Of a stretch of 64,000 nt of DNA, positions 731 to 56,950 are shown one piece after another. The stretch spans positions 413,969-477,968 of the forward strand of contig VMGB01000001.1 in NCBI GenBank assembly GCA_007376295.1, read 5' to 3'. The notes under the pieces were generated by a model. That model searched no databases, had not been told where the DNA came from, and worked only from the letters and a program-made list of their open reading frames with translations. This DNA comes from Parcubacteria group bacterium Gr01-1014_13. Its GTDB lineage: Bacteria > Patescibacteriota > Patescibacteriia > Magasanikbacterales > GWA2-37-8. Within the stretch, counting starts at the first letter, position 1, and every line of letters starts with the position of its first letter. The translations under genes and the position numbers were made by a program.

Positions 731-2032
731 TTAATACTGACTAACGAATTCTTCAAAACAAGTGACCATATACTCCATCATTTCAGTGGTGAGTCCAGGG
801 AAAACCCCGACCCAAAAAGTATTATTCATCACCAAATCGGCATTCTTTAAATCCCCCACCGCTCGATGTTCTATTTTATTTTCTATAAAATATGGCTGCT
901 TCACAATATTGCCGGCAAACAAATAACGTGTGGCAATTTGCTTATCATTCAAAAAATGGACGAGGGTATCGCGATCAAACGGCGCGTCTTCTTTTATTGT
1001 TAACAAAAATCCAAACCAGCTTGGTTCGGCATTATCAAGCCATTTGGGCAAAATAAAATAATCTTCAAATTTCTTTAGGCCTTTGTATAAAATATCAAAG
1101 TTTTCTCGGCGCTTGGCCACAAAACTCTCCAACTTTTCTAGTTGCGCCACTCCCAATGCAGCCTGCATGTCGGTAACCTTTAAATTGTAGCCGGTTTCGG
1201 AATAAATATATTTGTGATCATAACCATATGGCAAATTTCCCAGCTGCCAACCAAACCTCATACCGCAAGTGTTGTCGCAGCCTGGTTTACAATAACAATC
1301 TCTGCCCCAATCACGAAATGAACGAATAATTTTTGCCAAAATAGCATCGTTAGTAAACAACATGCCGCCTTCGCCCAAAGTAATATGATGAGCCGGATAA
1401 AAACTGCAGGTGGCAATATGGCCAAATGTTCCTGTGTGTTTGCCGTTATAAATTGAACCCAAAGCATCGCAGTTATCTTCTATCAACCAAAGATCGTGTT
1501 CTTTGCAAATAGCGGCAATTGCATCCAAATCAAATGGGTTACCCAAAGTGTGTGCTAAAAATATGGCTTTGGTTTTTGGAGTTACCGCCTTTCTAATTTC
1601 TTCGACATTGGCATTGTAGTAACCTAAATCAACATCTACCAAAACCGGTATTAATCTGTTTTGAATAATTGGATTTACGGTGGTAGGAAAACTCGTGGCC
1701 ACAGTGATTACTTCGTCGCCCGGATTTAATCGTTTAGCGCCCAGTTTTGCCGAAGTAAGAGCTGAGATGGCCAACAAGTTTGCTGATGATCCGGAGTTTA
1801 CCAAAATCGCTTGCTTGGCTCCCAACCAATATGCAAGTTTACTTTCAAATTCTTCAGTAAAATGACCTTCTGTCCACCAACCTTCGAGCACTGCTTCTAC
1901 CGCATTGATCATTTCTTTTTCATCAAAAACTTTGCCAGTTATGGGAACTGGCGAATCTCCGGGAATAAATGATTTTGGAGGGAATCTTTTATTGTATTCA
2001 GCCTGAATTTGATCTTTTAGATAATCTTCCAT
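731..2032 (-). CDS. rfbH: CDP-6-deoxy-D-xylo-4-hexulose-3-dehydrase (E1, DegT/DnrJ/EryC1 PLP/PMP-dependent family)
   Basis: 433 aa; DegT-family fold with the E1-specific cysteine cluster CYCKPGCDNTCGMRFGW ([2Fe-2S] site of RfbH/DdhC); co-clustered with rfbF and rfbG homologues. Confidence 0.8.
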   Translation of the reverse strand: MEDYLKDQIQAEYNKRFPPKSFIPGDSPVPITGKVFDEKEMINAVEAVLEGWWTEGHFTEEFESKLAYWLGAKQAILVNSGSSANLLAISALTSAKLGAKRLNPGDEVITVATSFPTTVNPIIQNRLIPVLVDVDLGYYNANVEEIRKAVTPKTKAIFLAHTLGNPFDLDAIAAICKEHDLWLIEDNCDALGSIYNGKHTGTFGHIATCSFYPAHHITLGEGGMLFTNDAILAKIIRSFRDWGRDCYCKPGCDNTCGMRFGWQLGNLPYGYDHKYIYSETGYNLKVTDMQAALGVAQLEKLESFVAKRRENFDILYKGLKKFEDYFILPKWLDNAEPSWFGFLLTIKEDAPFDRDTLVHFLNDKQIATRYLFAGNIVKQPYFIENKIEHRAVGDLKNADLVMNNTFWVGVFPGLTTEMMEYMVTCFEEFVSQY

Positions 2033-4797: not shown

Positions 4798-5736
4798 CTA
4801 AAAATTCACCCTCTCTCTTTCTATCACCAGTGGCCGTTCGCGTACTTGGGTGTAAATGGCTCCAATATACTCGCCCAAGATACCAATAAAAAACAACTGA
4901 ATGGAAGAAAAGAAAAAGATACCGATACTAAGCGGTGCTAAGCCGGCTTCAAACCGATCCCAAAAAAGCAGTTTGTAAATTAAATAAACTATACCGACTA
5001 TAAAACTGATAACTGACATGCCAAAACCAATAAAACTGGCCAGACGCAAAGGAATTTTGGAATGATTCACAAAACCAAGCATAGCCAAGTCGTAGAGCGA
5101 ATAAAAATTATTGCTGGTCTTACCTCTTTTTCTGGCTGGCTGAAAATAACTTACTTCGGCGCGATTAAAACCAAGTTCGGTAATTAAACCGCGAAAATAT
5201 GGATATGGATCTTTGAGCGTGCGCAAAACCGCAATAAATTTTTGGTCGTATAGACCAAAACCAGTGAAATTTTTTATTTGCTCAACATCCGATATTTTTT
5301 TTATTAAGTTATAATAAACTTTTCGTATAGCGAACATTATAGCATTCTCTTCACTTTTATTTTTTACTCCCACCACAATAGAACTTCCTTCTTCCCACTT
5401 CTGCAAAAATTCTTTAATTGTCGCTGGCGGATCTTGTAAGTCGGAGGCCATCAGCACCACAGCATCGCCATGCGCTTGCTGCAATCCATAGTATGGAGAA
5501 CGGATATGACCAAAATTTTTGATGTTAACGATAATTTTTACATTATAATCTACGGTAGCCAATTTTTTTAATACCGCCACGGTACTGTCTGTGGAAGCAT
5601 TATCAATAAAAATATGTTCATAGCGATATTGAGGCAGATCGGCAAATACGGCTTTAACCTGACTGTACAATTCTTCCACGTTTAATTCTTCGTTGTAGCA
5701 TGGGGTAACCACGCTAATAAGTTTTTTGTCTGACAT
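4798..5736 (-). CDS. family-2 glycosyltransferase with C-terminal TM helices (polyprenol-phosphate sugar transferase, DPM1/ArnC/GtrB-like)
   Basis: 312 aa; N-terminal VVTPCYNEE and DNASTD motifs (GT-A DxD-like); two C-terminal TM helices. Confidence 0.7.
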   Translation of the reverse strand: MSDKKLISVVTPCYNEELNVEELYSQVKAVFADLPQYRYEHIFIDNASTDSTVAVLKKLATVDYNVKIIVNIKNFGHIRSPYYGLQQAHGDAVVLMASDLQDPPATIKEFLQKWEEGSSIVVGVKNKSEENAIMFAIRKVYYNLIKKISDVEQIKNFTGFGLYDQKFIAVLRTLKDPYPYFRGLITELGFNRAEVSYFQPARKRGKTSNNFYSLYDLAMLGFVNHSKIPLRLASFIGFGMSVISFIVGIVYLIYKLLFWDRFEAGLAPLSIGIFFFSSIQLFFIGILGEYIGAIYTQVRERPLVIERERVNF

Positions 5737-16524: not shown

Positions 16525-16622
16525 TGTGTGTTTCCCCCTTAGCCCGACTATACCTTAAATCGGACAAAAAATCAAGGGTTGGACCAAAACAAAAAAGACC
16601 GTAAAATTACGATCTTTTTTTG

Positions 16623-16696
16623 TAGGCGCTTAGGGATTCGAACCCTAGACCTCCTCGGTGTAAACGAGGCGCTCTAACCAACTGAGCTAAACGCCC
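16623..16696 (-). tRNA. tRNA-Val (anticodon TAC)
   Basis: The reverse complement folds as a cloverleaf: GGGCGTT/TA/GCTC-AGTTGGTTA-GAGC/CCTCG-TTTACAC-CGAGG/AGGTC/TAGGG-TTCGAAT-CCCTA/AGCGCCT-A. Confidence 0.8.
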
Positions 16697-20401: not shown

Positions 20402-22171
20402 TTAATCTAATTCCATTATCTGCTTTAAAATTTGCTGTAGCAATTCTGTATTTTTGTTTTTTTCCGCTTCTTTTAGCGCGCTAGTTAATTCCGCGCGTTT
20501 ATCATTCTGCCATTGCGACTTTATACGCGCCACCAAAATATCTATTTCTTTTTTTGCTTTTGCCAAATCAAAGTCGCTATACTCTTTGTCTGCTTTTAGG
20601 ACTAAAATATCAATGGAGTTTTGCTGCTCCTTTTCAAGCGCCTCTTTTTGGTCTATAGAACCATTGTACTGCCTTTTTAATGATTCGTAAAGGCTTGCCA
20701 TCGAAGCTGGGGGGAAGAACGCCTGACTTGAACTCATATCATATTCCCCGAACAATTTGGGGAATTTTATAAATAAAGCAAAAATATTCTCGGCCAATAA
20801 GCGTGATTGGCTCTGTTGACCCCAGTTTTCATCCTTAGCTTTCTCTTGGGGAACGTTCTCTGCCTTGCCTTCATAATGCTTTGGTTTGGCCGAAGCAAGC
20901 CGGCGCATTTCGGCTGTTAAAGTAGCGTGATCAACACTTAATTCATCAGCCAATTTTTTTAACCAATGATCCCGCTCTACCGCATAAGGCAGACGGATTA
21001 TTTCCGCAAGCAGGGTATCAGCAATTTTTTGCTTTTGTTTTGGATCATGCTTATCCGCTCCCAGTAGCACGCTGGCAAAATACCATTCCATCACTTCTTT
21101 GGCATTTTCTACGGCTTTAAACCAAACTGCTGAATTCTTTTTCAAACATTCATCGGCGTCTTTACCAGCACCGGCCGGAATTTGAATAATTTTTATATTC
21201 ATCCCCTGCTCCAGCGCCAAATCTATACCGCGCTTAGCCGCATTTTGACCGGCCGCATCAGCGTCAAAAGCAATGGCGATATTATTGGAATATCTTTTTA
21301 ATAATTTTATCTGTTCAAATGTTAGGGCTGTACCCGAAGATGCCACGACATTTTTCATACCGGCCTGATGACAAGCAATCACATCCATCTGCCCTTCTAC
21401 CAACACCGTAAAATCTTTATTTTTAATTTCCGTTTTAGCTTTGTTTAATCCGTATAAAATCCGCGACTTATCAAACACCAAAGTTTGCGGGGTGTTTATA
21501 TATTTACCGCCAGACTTTTCTGTTTCAACCAGTACCCGGCCGGTAAAACCAACATTATTGCCATGCGCATCCCAAATCGGAAACATAATACGCCCGCGAA
21601 AACGATCGTAGACTCCTCCACCATCTTTTTTTATCGTCAACCCAGAAGCCAGTAGATCATCTACATTGTTTCCTTTTTTTAATAAATACTGAGTGAGTAG
21701 ATCCCACTGTTCGGGAATAAAACCAACTTTCCATTCTTCAATTGTTTCTGGTTTTAACTGCCGGCGTGATAAATAATCTCTGGCGCCACCGCTAGCAGGC
21801 ATCTCCAACAGAAACTGATGAAAAAAATATGCGGCTTTGGCATTTATTTCTAAAATTCTATTTTTCTGACTTTTGTTTATGTCGCTGACAAACGTATCTA
21901 ATTTTACTCCGGCTCTGTCTGCCAAAATTTTTAACGCCTCGGAAAATTCTAAACCTTCCATTTCCTGTAAAAAAGAAAAAACATCTCCGCCTTTACTGCA
22001 ACCAAAACAATGCCAGAATTGCTTTTCTGGATGAACCATAAATGAAGGAGATTTTTCATTATGGAATGGACAGTTGGCTTTCCAGTTAGCACCAGCTTTT
22101 TTCAGCGGAATATATTCGCCGATTATCTGCACAATATCCAATCTGTCTTTGATGGCTTGAGTGTCGGTCAT
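20402..22171 (-). CDS. dnaG: DNA primase
   Basis: 589 aa; N-terminal zinc ribbon CPFHNEKSPSFMV...CFGC and a TOPRIM domain (EGQMDVIA, DADAAG). Confidence 0.9.
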   Translation of the reverse strand: MTDTQAIKDRLDIVQIIGEYIPLKKAGANWKANCPFHNEKSPSFMVHPEKQFWHCFGCSKGGDVFSFLQEMEGLEFSEALKILADRAGVKLDTFVSDINKSQKNRILEINAKAAYFFHQFLLEMPASGGARDYLSRRQLKPETIEEWKVGFIPEQWDLLTQYLLKKGNNVDDLLASGLTIKKDGGGVYDRFRGRIMFPIWDAHGNNVGFTGRVLVETEKSGGKYINTPQTLVFDKSRILYGLNKAKTEIKNKDFTVLVEGQMDVIACHQAGMKNVVASSGTALTFEQIKLLKRYSNNIAIAFDADAAGQNAAKRGIDLALEQGMNIKIIQIPAGAGKDADECLKKNSAVWFKAVENAKEVMEWYFASVLLGADKHDPKQKQKIADTLLAEIIRLPYAVERDHWLKKLADELSVDHATLTAEMRRLASAKPKHYEGKAENVPQEKAKDENWGQQSQSRLLAENIFALFIKFPKLFGEYDMSSSQAFFPPASMASLYESLKRQYNGSIDQKEALEKEQQNSIDILVLKADKEYSDFDLAKAKKEIDILVARIKSQWQNDKRAELTSALKEAEKNKNTELLQQILKQIMELD

Positions 22172-22271
22172 ATGTCGTTACTTTATCACAGTAGAAGCAA
22201 AACCAGCAAGCTACTAAGCATTGACAAAATGACTAAAAAAACATAAAATTCTCCTCAAAAGGAGAAAACAA

Positions 22272-22580
22272 ATGTTTACATTGAATTTGGATCTTGATAA
22301 AGTTAGGGAGTTCTACGAACCACACCCTGGTCATAACGAGAATGAGAAGATGAACTTTACCTTTCCAGCCGAAGTTAAGCAAGTGGCTGATGAACTGGCT
22401 GGTTGTAAGATGTCGGTTCGACAAGCCGTTTTAGCCTTCGAGGCTGCTATCATCAAAGGAAAGGTTAGAGGCCGCATATCTTTCGATAAAGATGAAGGAG
22501 AAAAATATATTACCTTAGAAGTTTTTTGCGCTGGCCGTTTCGATGTTAGTCATAAATTCAAGGTAATCAAGTGGCGCTAA
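22272..22580 (+). CDS. hypothetical protein
   Basis: 102 aa ORF preceded by aaaaGGAGaaaacaaATG (a good RBS); no recognisable motif. Confidence 0.4.
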   Translation: MFTLNLDLDKVREFYEPHPGHNENEKMNFTFPAEVKQVADELAGCKMSVRQAVLAFEAAIIKGKVRGRISFDKDEGEKYITLEVFCAGRFDVSHKFKVIKWR

Positions 22581-22628
22581 CTTGTATTTGACAACCTGAT
22601 TGATGACCGATATAGTTTAAGTATGCTC

Positions 22629-22759
22629 GGAGCTGTAGTTTAATGGCAAAACTCTAGACAAGCCGACGCTCGTTCGCTCGGAATTCTCCGGGCGTATGGC
22701 TGGTGTACCACATCGTCGGGACTAGCTAGAACGCTCTGTTCAAACCGGAGCCAGCTCCA
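22629..22759 (+). tRNA. tRNA-like gene with ~55-nt insertion between D-arm and T-arm (intron-containing tRNA, or pseudo/tRNA-like element)
   Basis: Acceptor stem GGAGCUG pairs with CAGCUCC, followed by discriminator A; U8-A9 is canonical. The D-arm GUUU-AAUGGCA-AAAC includes G18G19 and the T-arm is CUCUG-UUCAAAC-CGGAG. However, ~80 nt lie between the D-arm and T-arm where ~25 nt are expected, and the 3' end GCCAGCUCCA resembles a tRNA-Ala or tmRNA acceptor. Confidence 0.4.
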
Positions 22760-22793
22760 CTTTTTCTTCCTTAAGTTCTTTAAAATATTTTAT

Positions 22794-22867
22794 TGGGCGG
22801 TAGCTCAACCTAGAAAGAGTGCCTCGCTAACACCGAGGAAGTAGAGGTTCAATTCCTTTCCGCTCAA
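22794..22867 (+). tRNA. tRNA-like, anticodon AAC (Val) with atypical D-loop
   Basis: Cloverleaf reads TGGGCGG TA GCTC AACCTAGAAA GAGT G CCTCG CTAACAC CGAGG AAGT AGAGG TTCAATT CCTTT CCGCTCA A. It has a T1-A72 pair, a D-loop lacking G18G19 and an A34 anticodon; all three are unusual for bacteria. Confidence 0.35.
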
Positions 22868-22915
22868 CCCCACTTAGCCGGCGTGTTTCATTAAAGAAAC
22901 CACCGGCTTTTTTAT

Positions 22916-24388
22916 TTATTTTTTCTCCCAATCCTGCACATCTTTTAAGTATTTGTCTTTTATTTCATCAAAGTATTTCTTAGCCGCTTCGTATTCATTA
23001 GGAATTATCCCGTCCAAAATCGCTTCTTCTATCGCCTCTTTTATCTTTCCCACAGTTGGACCCGGTTTCAATTTTGCCAGTTCCATAATCTCATCACCTC
23101 GTAATGGCGATTGAAACGCGCGTAATTTGTCTCTTTCCAAAACTTCGGCAATCTTTTTTTCCAGATTGTCGTAATTTTTTAATCTTTTTTCTTTTTTGGC
23201 TGGATTGCCGGTGGTAATATCACTGCGGCCCAAAATTAAAAGGTCGTTTAATTCATCACCCAGACTGACAACCAATCGCCGTACGGCCGAATCGCTGATG
23301 CCTTCATCCATTAGGCTGATAGGTTGCATATGCCAACGAACGAGTTTAGCTAAATAGTCGGTATCGCTTTTGGAAAAACGCAAACGACGGCTAATTTGAT
23401 AAACCATTTTTTTACCTACATGTTCATGCTGATGAAATGTCCAACCGACTTTTGGTATGAATTTCTTGGTATTAGGTTTACCAATATCATGAAAAAGACC
23501 AGCCAAACGAAGTAGTGTTTTGTCCGAAAACTCCGAAACGTTATCTACCACCTTAAATGTATGCGCCAGATTATCTTTGTGCTGATGACCATAAACATCC
23601 TCTACACCTTCCAATTTAGCTACTTCCGGCAATACAAAATCAAGTATGTGTGTCTGCCACATTAAAGTAAGACCAATGGATGGTTTGGGACAAGACATTA
23701 ATTTAAAAAGTTCTTCCTGAATTCTTTCAGCGGAAACAATTTTTAAACGCTCGCGGTTTTTGTGAATTGATTCCAAAGTTTTGGGATCAATAGAAAAATC
23801 CAACTGACTAGCAAAACGCACTGCTCGCATCATGCGCAACGGATCATCACTAAAAGTCTGGTCCGGATCCAGAGGCGTACGCAAAGTTTTGCTGGCCAAA
23901 TCTTTTCTGCCTTTAAATGGATCGATTAAATTCTTTTTTAATTTAGCTTCAGTTAATTTTTTACCATCTGCAAAAACAGCCGCGGGGACAGCCATACAAT
24001 TAACGGTAAAATCACGCCGTGCCAAATCTTCTTCGAGCGTCGTATGTTCTACTACCGGTTTACGAGAGTTAGGTTTGTATTTTTCTGTGCGCGCACCGGC
24101 AAATTCAAACATCAATTGATCATCTTCGGTTCCTAATATATACCGGGCGGTATCAAAATCCGGAAATTCGATTAAACTACCTGCCTTATCTACCGACTCG
24201 TCAAATTTTTTGGCAAATTCCAAACCACTGCCAACGACTACAAAATCAATATCTTTCTTTTGTTCCCGGCCCAACAAAAAATCACGCACAAAACCACCCA
24301 CGACATATATCGGTGTCTTGGAATCTTCGGAAACAGAATTAATTTTCTTTAGCACATCTAGCAATTGCATACTTTTTTCTCTCTTCAC
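22916..24388 (-). CDS. cca: CCA tRNA nucleotidyltransferase / poly(A) polymerase family protein with HD domain
   Basis: 490 aa; N-terminal class-II nucleotidyltransferase head (VVGGFVRDFLLG...DIDFVV) and a C-terminal HD motif (FHDIGK). Confidence 0.8.
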   Translation of the reverse strand: MKREKSMQLLDVLKKINSVSEDSKTPIYVVGGFVRDFLLGREQKKDIDFVVVGSGLEFAKKFDESVDKAGSLIEFPDFDTARYILGTEDDQLMFEFAGARTEKYKPNSRKPVVEHTTLEEDLARRDFTVNCMAVPAAVFADGKKLTEAKLKKNLIDPFKGRKDLASKTLRTPLDPDQTFSDDPLRMMRAVRFASQLDFSIDPKTLESIHKNRERLKIVSAERIQEELFKLMSCPKPSIGLTLMWQTHILDFVLPEVAKLEGVEDVYGHQHKDNLAHTFKVVDNVSEFSDKTLLRLAGLFHDIGKPNTKKFIPKVGWTFHQHEHVGKKMVYQISRRLRFSKSDTDYLAKLVRWHMQPISLMDEGISDSAVRRLVVSLGDELNDLLILGRSDITTGNPAKKEKRLKNYDNLEKKIAEVLERDKLRAFQSPLRGDEIMELAKLKPGPTVGKIKEAIEEAILDGIIPNEYEAAKKYFDEIKDKYLKDVQDWEKK

Positions 24389-52639: not shown

Positions 52640-52795
52640 TATATAACGACCTAAACCCTGCGCAAGCAGGGCATGGTCAAAAAACCAACCAAGGTAGTAA
52701 GCTCTCCGTCCAGAGCACCTTGGTTGGTCGTGGGTCGAAAGATCCGCGGGTGGCGCAAGCCATCGCTGGCGGGGAGCTTTTTGTTTTTAAAATTA
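52640..52795. other. GC-rich structured element (candidate sRNA or cis-regulatory RNA) in the intergenic region between the PHP-ATPase gene and the plus-strand operon
   Basis: The background is AT-rich, but this stretch has a hairpin CCCTGCGCAAGCAGGG (52654-52669), a long stem AACCAACCAAGGT...ACCTTGGTTGG (52685-52735), and the GC-rich CCGCGGGTGGCGCAAGCCATCGCTGGCGGGGAGC before a T-run ending 5 nt before the ATG at 52800. Confidence 0.3.
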
Positions 52796-52799
52796 AATT

Positions 52800-53294
52800 A
52801 TGAACGATCATCTAATTAACGGCTTTGAACACAATTTGATTAAGGGCAAGATAGCCGAAACTATTTTTGAATTAATGTTCCAAGAATCTAAAAAGTTTTC
52901 TGTATTTCACTTTGGCTATGAGTACACCGCCGAATACCTAGCACAATATAATTTAGCATTACCAAAGGAGGTGCTTAGCAATATCCGCCACTCACCTGAT
53001 TTTATTATCGTCACAGAAAATAAAAAGGGTGCTTATTTAGTTGAGGTTAAATACAGAACGCACATTGATAACCAAGAAATGATAGATACAGCTAGACGAC
53101 TTAAGGAACGATGGAACCCATCATATATTTTTGTTATATCTAACGACGGCTTTTATTTTACTCCGGCTAATACCATTATTAACAAAGGTAAGATGGAAAA
53201 ATTAGACAGAAAATGGATCAATAGCGGGCTTCAAACCAAATACTTTAAACTGGTAGAAGATTATCTCTGCCACCACAAGGACAAAAATCTATAA
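52800..53294 (+). CDS. small PD-(D/E)xK nuclease-fold protein (restriction-endonuclease-like), hypothetical
   Basis: 164 aa; motif order E(...IAETIFE)...PDFIIV...AYLVEVKYR fits the D-x(n)-(D/E)xK catalytic core. Confidence 0.4.
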   Translation: MNDHLINGFEHNLIKGKIAETIFELMFQESKKFSVFHFGYEYTAEYLAQYNLALPKEVLSNIRHSPDFIIVTENKKGAYLVEVKYRTHIDNQEMIDTARRLKERWNPSYIFVISNDGFYFTPANTIINKGKMEKLDRKWINSGLQTKYFKLVEDYLCHHKDKNL

Positions 53295-54960: not shown

Positions 54961-55243
54961 CCATTATCCTCGCCCTGTGGCGGCATCTGTGATGCCGTCC
55001 ATGGGCGGATATAATATTGCACTTAACTTTACTATTACATTATTTGGTTCGTTTCTATGTTGGAAAACAATAAAGGACAATCTGTTTTTTCCAATGAGGT
55101 GATCGTAAACTTCACTGTCTTTTATAATAGTCTCCTCACGGTTAGAAATAGATTGCTTAGGGAAGGATACAGCATAGAGAATGGTAAAATTTTTAAGCCC
55201 GCTGGAAATTTTGATAAGATATGTTATACTCCTGATAAGTATG

Positions 55244-56950
55244 ACCAAAACCAACCAAGGTAATACCTACCTAATCTACGCTCGTAAGAGTACGGATGAT
55301 TCTGAAAATCAAAAAAATTCTATAGACTACCAAGTGGGTGAATGTTTGAGATACTCAAAAACTAATAATCTTGTAATATCTGATTACTCCTTTGAAGGAT
55401 TAAGTAACAACGGTGTAATTAAAGAAAAACATACCGCATATAAAACTTCCGATATCTCCATCAATAAAGATGGTTCTTTTGTGTACCACATTGAACGCCC
55501 AAAATTTAAACAGCTCGTAGACAGTCTAATGAAAAAAGAATTTAAAGGTGTTATCTGTTTGTGTTGGGATCGTATAAGCCGTAATGACCAAGACGGTATT
55601 ATAATTAAAAACCTAATCAAAAATGGCATTGACGTTCGATTTGTCCAAACAAAATATGAAAAGACTAGCTCCGGAGCTTTACACATGGATATAGATGGCA
55701 TGTTCGCGGCACACTACTCTAGAGTAATAAGCGAGAAAGTAAAAGCTGCTTATTCAAAACTTCAAAGCGAGGGAAAATGTACTTACATAGCTCCGATTGG
55801 TTATTTAGATAAGGGTTCAGATAACAAGCCACTGGATTTAGACAGGGCACATATTGTAAAACAAATATTTGAAATGTACTCCGAGGGTGGTTGGAGTTTA
55901 AATCAATTGGCGAAATGGGCAAACCAACAAGGACTAACAACTAAGCCTTCTCGTAGTAAAAGAACTTCTCAAGAAGTAATGTCTGGCGAAGAAAACAATA
56001 AACCAAAGGTCGGTCGTCCTCTCAATGACAAAAGTGTTGAGCTTATTCTTAAAAATCCATTCTACATAGGCAAACTTAAAATTGGCGGCCAAATTATTGA
56101 CGGTATTCATCAGCCCTTAATCAATGTCGGTTTATTTAACAAGGTACAAGAAGTTTTGAAAAGCCGAAATGTAAAGGTCTATTACGTAGATAAAGAATTT
56201 TACACTTTTAGAGGACTGATAACTTGCGATTGTGGCAGATCTTATTCCCCGTACAGAAAGAAAGGTATTGTGTATTATCGTTGTCGTTGTAAAACTGACT
56301 GCACCAGTACCGATACAAACCTCAATGAAAGCGAAATTAATAGGGTTATAAACGATTTGATGGGTCAGATACACTTCAACGACCAAGAGCTCGCCGAAAT
56401 TGAATCTAGGGCAAAATTTGGGCTTCAAGAAGTATCAGATCGTAGAAACACAGAGATGGAAACGTTGAACAAACAAAGACAACGTCTTTTTGATGATTTG
56501 GACTATCTGCAAAACAATAAAATCACACTACTTCGGACAAATGTTTATTCCATGGAGAAAATTAACGACGAAATAAACAGTCTTGAAAGGAGATTAGACG
56601 AAATTGAGGAAAAAATGAAGGCTTACAAAGAAGCGGCCATCGATATGCTGAAGTATGTGCTATCTTTTTCCGAACTTGTAAAAGAGGCTAAGCTATACTA
56701 CGAACACGCACTTGATACTGAAAAAAGGGATATTACCTTATCTGTGTTTTCCGAACTGACTTTCCACAATGGAAGCTTATCTAAATTTAAAGCAAAAGAA
56801 GGCTTTGAAGCCCTCTTTAAAAGACACGACACGATATCTGGCTCCCGGGGTCGGATTCGAACCGACGACCAATTGGTTAACAGCCAACTGCGCTACCGCT
56901 GCGCTACCCGGGAATTTACGACACTAGTATATTTAAAATTTTCGCTTTAG
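55244..56950 (+). CDS. large serine recombinase (resolvase/invertase N-terminal catalytic domain + recombinase domain + zinc ribbon + coiled coil)
   Basis: Catalytic motif YLIYARKSTDDSENQ (Ser nucleophile); zinc ribbon CDCGRSYSPYRKKGIVYYRCRC; C-terminal coiled coil. The track ORF begins at 55181; Met at 55244 is the likelier start. The last ~38 codons are antisense to tRNA-Asn, so the true C-terminus is uncertain. Confidence 0.7.
   Translation, partial: TKTNQGNTYLIYARKSTDDSENQKNSIDYQVGECLRYSKTNNLVISDYSFEGLSNNGVIKEKHTAYKTSDISINKDGSFVYHIERPKFKQLVDSLMKKEFKGVICLCWDRISRNDQDGIIIKNLIKNGIDVRFVQTKYEKTSSGALHMDIDGMFAAHYSRVISEKVKAAYSKLQSEGKCTYIAPIGYLDKGSDNKPLDLDRAHIVKQIFEMYSEGGWSLNQLAKWANQQGLTTKPSRSKRTSQEVMSGEENNKPKVGRPLNDKSVELILKNPFYIGKLKIGGQIIDGIHQPLINVGLFNKVQEVLKSRNVKVYYVDKEFYTFRGLITCDCGRSYSPYRKKGIVYYRCRCKTDCTSTDTNLNESEINRVINDLMGQIHFNDQELAEIESRAKFGLQEVSDRRNTEMETLNKQRQRLFDDLDYLQNNKITLLRTNVYSMEKINDEINSLERRLDEIEEKMKAYKEAAIDMLKYVLSFSELVKEAKLYYEHALDTEKRDITLSVFSELTFHNGSLSKFKAKEGFEALFKRHDTISGSRGRIRTDDQLVNSQLRYRCATREFTTLVYLKFSL
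56838..56912 (-). tRNA. tRNA-Asn (anticodon GTT), CCA encoded
   Basis: The reverse complement reads TCCCGGG TA GCGC AGCGGTA GCGC A GTTGG CTGTTAA CCAAT TGGTC GTCGG TTCGAAT CCGAC CCCGGGA G CCA. Confidence 0.8.

Follow-up and report, generated by a model that had tools for sequence, protein, structure and literature searches.

What kind of RNA has the body of a tRNA and a branched domain in the place of its anticodon loop? We addressed this question for a 131-nt element, hereafter element 1, encoded in a 64-kb stretch of the genome of Parcubacteria group bacterium Gr01-1014_13 (contig VMGB01000001.1; the whole 64,000-nucleotide stretch is referred to as the window). A sequence-only reading had described two aberrant tRNA-like elements between dnaG and cca, the gene for the CCA-adding enzyme, and both are indeed present on the plus strand: element 1 at 22629-22759 and element 2 at 22794-22867, separated by a 34-nt A/U-rich spacer. 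We consider it somewhat better than an even bet that element 1 is a functional, lineage-restricted, non-decoding tRNA-derived non-coding RNA, and element 2 is a genuine but divergent, apparently redundant tRNA-Val.

Every component of a tRNA body that had been claimed for element 1 is found in it. The acceptor stem GGAGCUG/CAGCUCC (22629-22635 with 22752-22758) forms seven perfect pairs and is followed by the discriminator A73 at 22759, U8-A9 is present, and the D arm GUUU-AAUGGCA-AAAC (22638-22652) has a 4-bp stem and a loop with G18G19. The T arm GCUCUG-UUCAAAC-CGGAGC (22733-22751) has 6 bp, an extra invariant G-C pair producing a 13-bp acceptor/T helix instead of one of 12 (7/6 geometry), and the variable region measures only 3-4 nt. 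The spacing of roughly 80 nt reported between the D and T arms is exactly 80 nt by our count (element positions 25-104), and the stems noticed within it are real features of the predicted fold, CCGACG and CGUCGG pairing as a helix termed S2. Where an anticodon loop would be, a branched domain is built outwards from S1 (5' strand CUAGAC, 22654-22659, with 22724-22729), which occupies the anticodon-stem position; it continues through an internal loop, in which AAG (22660-22662) faces GACU (22720-22723), into S2 (22663-22668 with 22714-22719), and ends in a junction with two distal hairpins, H1 (GCUCGGA-AUUC-UCCGGGC, 22676-22693) and H2 (UGGU/ACCA, 22701-22711). The minimum free energy fold of element 1 gives this layout (-53 kcal/mol, z = -3.96), with none of 200 shuffled sequences as stable, and the G+C content of the element is 55%, compared with about 40% for the genome. 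About 66 nt separate the two strands of S1, and a canonical anticodon arm (5-bp stem, 7-nt loop, U33, purine at position 37) is lacking. Given this predicted fold, element 1 cannot read codons.

Using cca and a small open reading frame (ORF) of the gap as handles, we fetched the orthologous loci, and found element 1 as four distinct variants in related groundwater Parcubacteria, in nine independent assemblies (window included) from different samples; the insert is therefore no assembly artefact. The variant of the window is joined by a 134-nt form shared by L001 (6043-6176, minus strand) and L030, a 136-nt form shared by L006 (2699-2834, plus strand), L023, L024 and L029, and a 135-nt form in L027 (3264-3398, minus strand). 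Position 3 pairs as A3-U70 in all but the L006 type, which has G3·U70, and A73 is replaced by G73 only in L027, which also has G7·U66. CCA is not encoded: the nucleotides after position 73 are CUU, CCG, CCU or UCA among the four variants. Overall identity between variants is 61-79%, compared with 52-60% at four-fold degenerate sites of cca in the same four genomes, and the non-coding flanks of element 1 are not alignable. Invariant positions number 39 of 55 in the tRNA frame, 19 of 31 in the core formed by S1, the internal loop and S2, and 17 of 45 in the distal part. All elbow and core nucleotides are kept in the four variants (U8, A14, G18G19, A21, G53-C61, U54, U55, C56 and A58), as are, within the insert, the AAG strand and the ACU of the opposite strand of the internal loop (RACU across variants), and the sequence UACCAC in H2 (22706-22711). 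The latter has an internal ACCA, identical to the 3' end sequence of tRNAs.

We scored a seven-helix model (acceptor stem, D stem, S1, S2, H1, H2 and T stem) on the four-way alignment. Standard pairs fill 92.5% of cells, as against 30-44% when the partners are slid by 1-3 columns, and seven pairs have changed on both sides, as against 0-1 in the slid controls; 0 of 500 shuffles reached seven. The acceptor stem is 100% paired, H1 and the T stem 96%, S2 92% and S1 79%. The double changes comprise two in the T stem (C-G to U-A and U-A to C-G), two in S2 (C-G to U-A and G-C to A-U), two in H1 and one in S1. These patterns of substitution indicate that element 1 is a real RNA gene under selection.

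Several observations weigh against a function for element 1. Only four sequences from one narrow clade are available, so that the covariation is suggestive and not statistically secure, and the structure model was partly derived from the same sequences. S1 forms only four or five of six pairs in the window copy, and L027 has lost H2, the UGGU partner being absent there whilst UACCAC remains invariant. The close relatives L002, L007, L008, L025 and L033 have other content at the site. The family is, moreover, extremely rare and lineage-restricted: in a genome contig collection a D-arm/T-arm pattern gave 12 matches, of which none fitted the nhmmer profile of element 1, and a metagenome contig collection yielded only two identical copies and two chance matches. 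Part of this evidence would suit the explanation that an insertion inactivated a tRNA gene and left element 1 behind as a scar in a recombination hot spot, its conservation being only apparent and due to the close kinship of the genomes. The absence of element 1 from close relatives and the imperfect S1 are what a decaying gene would predict, the insert has inverted ends (CCGACG/CGUCGG), and the gap between cca and dnaG is hypervariable, with several irregular or mismatched tRNA genes. However, neutral sites have diverged by 40-48% whilst the tRNA frame is nearly invariant, the seven compensated pairs and all nucleotides of the tertiary interactions have been retained, and so has a promoter-like site in each lineage (in L027 ahead of the ORF); the insert also occurs only once in the window, as it does at every locus. 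We consequently regard a dead gene as unlikely. The pseudogene, integration scar and assembly artefact that the sequence-only reading had entertained fit poorly with an insert that four diverged lineages have preserved, as seen in nine assemblies, with compensatory substitutions and conservation above that of neutral sites.

The hypervariability itself is plain: irregular tRNA genes have a hot spot in the cca/dnaG gap. The tRNA-Cys(GCA) found there in L007 (5542-5616, minus strand) has an anticodon stem of 6 bp, L008 and L009 have an extra tRNA-Lys(UUU), and L025 and L026 combine a tRNA-Lys(UUU) with a gene (L025 4321-4396, minus strand) in which the anticodon stem has 6 bp, the loop 8 nt (CUUCACCG), and A3·C70 is mismatched. 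In L001, stretches of 24 and 18 nt replace the core of the anticodon arm in two genes at 5481-5565 and 5609-5689 (minus strand), which nevertheless score 46-49 bits with the Rfam tRNA model. An unrelated 189-aa gene takes the place in L002, and the small ORF stands by itself in L033. The T arm GGUCGCAGGUUYAAAUCCUG is common to the irregular genes of L025, L007 and L001 (5609-5689). L008 also encodes a 73-nt tRNA (1941-2013, minus strand) with anticodon UCA, C33 and acceptor mismatches, labelled 'tRNA-SeC' by ARAGORN and scoring 46.7 bits with the Rfam tRNA model; it occupies the place held by tRNA-Pro(CGG) in L002, L005, L010 and L025, and in the window ARAGORN leaves the equivalent region without a tRNA call.

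Element 1 escapes the standard detectors. ARAGORN made no call on it in default mode, nor on any of the four variants in its intron (-i) and transfer-messenger RNA (tmRNA; -m) modes. Rfam gave no match to element 1 at the gathering threshold or at E<=10, the tRNA, tmRNA, Intron_gpI, ribozyme and riboswitch families included, and a scan of the orthologous loci at E<=0.01 left the element 1 copies unmatched. A covariance model built from our alignment (R1) retrieved only the four copies, at 123-149 bits (148.5 for the window copy, with no second copy in the window); ordinary tRNAs scored 22-27 bits with the same model and matched it end to end, which confirms the tRNA frame of element 1. The sequence-only reading had named two outcomes that would speak against its interpretation. 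The first, failure of tRNA predictors, was observed for element 1; the second, an ordinary uninterrupted tRNA at this place in related genomes, was not, as the relatives that have the element carry the same interrupted architecture.

Searches of other collections agree with this narrow distribution. The 3' pattern of element 1 had no match among viral contigs, BLAST against phage genomes left the element unmatched, and in the literature on the Candidate Phyla Radiation and Patescibacteria we found no tRNA-like RNA or tRNA intron of such a kind. Hammerhead, twister, riboswitch and K-turn readings were rejected by eye or by the lack of an Rfam match. A shorter 5' pattern did retrieve about 25 ordinary tRNA-Gly(UCC) genes from viral contigs. 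Such phage genes (L037, L064, L079 and about 20 others) have the exact D arm of element 1, UAGUUUAAUGGYAAAAC; the sequence CAAGCUGA, covering loop positions 36-38 and the 3' strand of the anticodon stem, is likewise shared with it, the spacing being almost equal. We judged them to reflect generic D-arm similarity and rejected them as homologues; the likeness could be a hint at the ancestry of element 1.

A tRNA frame interrupted in the anticodon arm recalls intron-containing tRNAs, whether of the group I or of the archaeal and eukaryal bulge-helix-bulge kind, and an intron had been proposed for element 1. In its most specific form, this explanation makes element 1 a Val-like precursor tRNA, with an insert of ~60-65 nt at position 33/34 that represents a new short bacterial intron removed by an unknown enzyme. 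Deleting the S2 domain in silico indeed leads ARAGORN to call tRNA-Val(GAC) in all four variants, an 'AC' resembling A35-C36 is invariant in the 3' strand of the internal loop next to the 3' strand of S1 (G/A-A-C), three of the four variants have A73, and the neighbouring gene is a tRNA-Val. Extra anticodon-arm nucleotides also occur in other tRNAs of the hot spot, namely the 8-nt loop of L025 and the 18 and 24 nt of the two L001 genes. Against this, some 800 in-silico deletions per variant gave only non-canonical Val, Ala, Glu and similar calls, and after every excision position 33 was A, not U, and position 37 was U, not a purine, so that no canonical 7-nt loop results on removal. Element 1 contains no bulge-helix-bulge (two 3-nt bulges around a 4-bp helix), because the AAG and RACU segments face each other as an internal loop, and its insert of ~65-75 nt holds no group I core (P3-P9, usually >200 nt), in agreement with the earlier remark that it is too short for a group I intron and with the silence of Rfam. 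ARAGORN's intron mode was likewise negative, the T stem has 6 bp, a tRNA-Val(UAC) is already present in the window, and no splicing endonuclease or ligase was seen among the ORFs scanned within the 64 kb. The insert itself, finally, seems to be under structural selection: compensatory changes in the distal hairpins and an invariant UACCAC would be unexpected in a discarded spacer. An intron is, on this balance, distinctly unlikely.

A broader version of the valine connection is that the Candidate Phyla Radiation harbours a hitherto unrecognised tRNA-Val-derived class, in which the determinants of valyl-tRNA synthetase recognition (A35, C36 and A73) are kept and insertions of 1 to ~65 nt lie 5' of the anticodon loop, element 1 being the extreme member. 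The idea arises because several genes of the hot spot keep an NAC triplet 3' in the loop. Such a class may represent a new, protein-dependent type of bacterial tRNA intron, or it may consist of chargeable mimics whose task, outside decoding, is to deliver valine or tRNA-binding factors or to keep them sequestered. We hold the proposal to be doubtful, with a low probability similar to that of the intron, and put it forward as a lead only.

The favoured reading, a non-decoding tRNA-derived RNA, also had to be weighed against a miniature tmRNA-like or alanine-accepting RNA, since the 3' end had been described as tRNA-Ala- or tmRNA-like. The overall plan is suggestive, tmRNA (ssrA, including its reduced jakobid mitochondrial form) likewise uniting an acceptor/T domain with a large structured insert at the anticodon arm. 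The L006-type acceptor GGGGCUG/CAGCUCC-A with G3·U70 adds to the likeness; it matches the acceptor stem of Escherichia coli tmRNA and tRNA-Ala, and the acceptor sequences of tmRNA and tRNA-Ala are almost identical to that of this one variant. The resemblance does not extend to the family as a whole, however. The other three variants (window, L001 and L027) have A3-U70, no tag reading frame, resume codon or stop codon is conserved across the four, with indels breaking the frame, and ARAGORN's tmRNA mode and the Rfam tmRNA families were negative. Element 1 further differs from tmRNA in its full, normal D stem, its lack of pseudoknots and its size of 131-136 nt. A tmRNA-like or alanine-accepting function is accordingly very improbable, and the proposed Ala/tmRNA character of the 3' end falls with the confinement of G3·U70 to one variant.

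The genetic context of element 1 suggests how it may be expressed and raises one further alternative. The dnaG-cca gap, home of both elements, is 745 bp long and lies between dnaG (20402-22171) and cca (22916-24388), both on the minus strand like nearly every large ORF of the window; the gap carries a plus-strand unit. This unit starts with a promoter-like site TTGACA-17-TAAAAT (22221-22249) upstream of the small ORF, which encodes a 102-aa orphan protein (22272-22580) and is oriented like element 1, no terminator separating the two. A sigma-70-type promoter-like site, TTGACA-17-TATAGT (22588-22616), follows 12 nt upstream of element 1, and downstream of element 2 an intrinsic terminator (22876-22914) consists of a hairpin at 22876-22908 and a U run (-16.9 kcal/mol, z = -5.75). 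The order of parts varies between lineages. In the window it is ORF, promoter, element 1 and tRNA-Val(AAC); in L006, ORF, promoter, element 1, tRNA-Val(GAC), terminator and a second paralogue of the ORF; in L001, promoter, element 1, ORF, promoter and the two further irregular tRNA-like genes; and in L027, promoter, ORF, element 1 and terminator. Promoter-like sites thus lie directly upstream of element 1 in three variants (TTGACA-17-TATGGT in L006, TTGACA-17-TATGAT in L001), and in L027 a joint transcript of the small ORF and element 1 is predicted.

In every case element 1 either belongs to one transcription unit with a small ORF or at least points the same way without an intervening terminator, being placed in the 5' untranslated region of the ORF in L001, in its 3' untranslated region in L027 and downstream of it in the window and L006. 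It could therefore be a cis-acting processing or stability module of the small-ORF transcript, a form of RNase P 'punctuation' with no function in trans. An ordinary tRNA or hairpin would, however, suffice for such a task, leaving the conserved internal loop, S2, H1 and UACCAC unexplained; three variants have a promoter of their own, and the small ORF is also found without any tRNA (L033). We rate a purely cis-acting role as quite improbable.

The possibility of a tRNA-like structure with another role, one of several raised by the sequence-only reading, gains most from these comparisons, four variants sharing the same interrupted architecture. We propose that element 1, as a functional tRNA-derived RNA, would be transcribed together with element 2 from its own sigma-70 promoter to the intrinsic terminator. 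It would fold into an L shape through its acceptor stem, U8, A14 and A21, the G18G19 of the D arm, and a T loop of the form UUCAAnn with G53-C61. It would then mature like a tRNA, with RNase P cleaving at the 5' end and CCA being added, the latter inferred because CCA is not encoded. The tRNA body may serve processing, stability and docking onto tRNA-binding factors, with element 1 acting as a mimic or scaffold, and the irregular extended arm of ~15 bp together with its two hairpins would present the specific binding surface.

Amongst described systems, the nearest phenomenon comes from soil bacteria, whose irregular tRNA polycistrons and allo-tRNA-like genes include members that are charged yet unused in translation (Mukai et al. 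2017, PMC5389517; PMC7609411). Like element 1, these genes and the tRNA-Other of B. cereus are non-canonical and possibly non-translational, and they lie in variable neighbourhoods. Allo-tRNA-like genes, however, keep an anticodon stem-loop of normal size and stand out by their acceptor/T geometry (8/4, 9/3) or by additional loops, whereas element 1 has 7/6 geometry and a branched arm of ~75 nt; the combination typical of tRNA-Sec and allo-tRNAs, in which a geometry other than 7/5 goes with a normal anticodon loop and a variable arm that is long, is not found in it. Two further comparisons involve RNAs with a different plan: in the bacterial Y RNA YrlA the topology is reversed, its acceptor-like stem being closed and the RNA ends lying in the stem found at the position of the anticodon arm, and the viral tRNA-like structures that accept valine combine a pseudoknot in the acceptor stem with a genuine 7-nt anticodon loop. 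Unlike YrlA, element 1 has free acceptor ends and no Rfam match, and unlike the viral structures it has a normal acceptor stem and places its 'AC' in an internal loop. YrlA nevertheless also joins a mimic of the tRNA D/T elbow to a protein-binding stem (PMC4201824), and the display of A35-C36-like nucleotides and A73 on a tRNA-shaped molecule that is not a tRNA is possibly shared with the viral structures (PMC7749636). Its predicted architecture makes element 1 a novel variation on the theme of tRNA-like RNAs, with a very narrow distribution.

If element 1 is a functional, processed mimic, its full tRNA body, 7/6 helix and branched arm in place of the anticodon would constitute a new architecture beside tmRNA, YrlA and tRNA-Other, in a lineage of the Candidate Phyla Radiation, where RNA biology is largely unexplored. 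The small gap beside the gene of the CCA-adding enzyme is a hot spot in which the anticodon arms of spare tRNA genes diversify, and genes such as element 1 are entirely missed by standard tRNA finders. With four variants in one narrow clade, the importance of the finding is limited accordingly.

Element 2 is a more conventional gene, and the 'unusual isoacceptor' proposed for it is well supported. ARAGORN calls it tRNA-Val(AAC), Rfam scores it at 55.5 bits (tRNA threshold 29), and the described cloverleaf with anticodon AAC (22829-22831), a D loop without G18G19 (AACCUAGAAA) and a U1-A72 pair was recovered in full. Its anticodon loop is CUAACAC, and A35, C36 and the discriminator A73 are present. 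An orthologue was found as one variant only, recovered on four contigs: the L006-type gene is a tRNA-Val(GAC) with an Rfam score of 60.1 bits, is 86% identical to element 2, well above neutral, and likewise combines U1-A72 with a D loop (AAGCUAAA) devoid of G18G19. Because this only orthologue carries GAC, A34 in the window is a private G34-to-A change. In bacteria few tRNAs other than tRNA-Arg(ACG) have A34, and TadA acts specifically on tRNA-Arg(ACG). Element 2 has the same anticodon AAC, A35, C36 and A73 as other such tRNA-Val(AAC) genes, and differs from other A34 tRNAs in that its A34 arose by a G-to-A change in one lineage only, within a spare paralogue lacking G18G19. It appears to be spare because the canonical tRNA-Val(UAC) that had been noted at 16.6 kb is indeed present (16622-16696; ARAGORN and Rfam). 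The change may be tolerated since GUU is the commonest valine codon here (34%) and GUC the rarest (13%).

The small protein encoded beside element 1 belongs to an orphan family of ~95-105 aa ending in ..IIKFR or IKWR, which occurs in the hot spot sometimes as two paralogues and sometimes without a tRNA. Besides the window, members are encoded in L006 (2349-2648 and 3046-3336), L001 (5739-6014, minus strand), L027 (3437-3751, minus strand), L025 (4472-4759, minus strand) and L033 (5001-5306). A word search gave 14 members and a profile search 230 cluster representatives, and apparent fusions in distant homologues were uninformative. The protein had no match in Pfam, PHROG or PADLOC, and its AlphaFold2 model (predicted local distance difference test 81, beta-alpha-beta-alpha-beta3) matched no fold in PDB or BFVD. 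No toxin-antitoxin genes were recognised beside element 1. An obligate link between the small protein and the RNA was dropped, as the protein also occurs without any tRNA.

The CCA-adding enzyme is 100% identical to a protein of Gr01-1014_13 and has its next relatives in Magasanikbacteria-like genomes of the Candidate Phyla Radiation. Elsewhere in the window, a LOOT RNA (RF03000, 97.9 bits) lies at 52648-52764 on the plus strand, followed immediately downstream by an ORF with a TnsA-like-N domain (52800-53294), an unassigned ORF and a serine recombinase (55181-56950). The recombinase abuts tRNA-Asn(GUU) (56839-56913, minus strand), and the G+C content falls to 0.35-0.36. The arrangement suggests that the segment 52648-56950 is an element integrated at tRNA-Asn and bearing the LOOT RNA.

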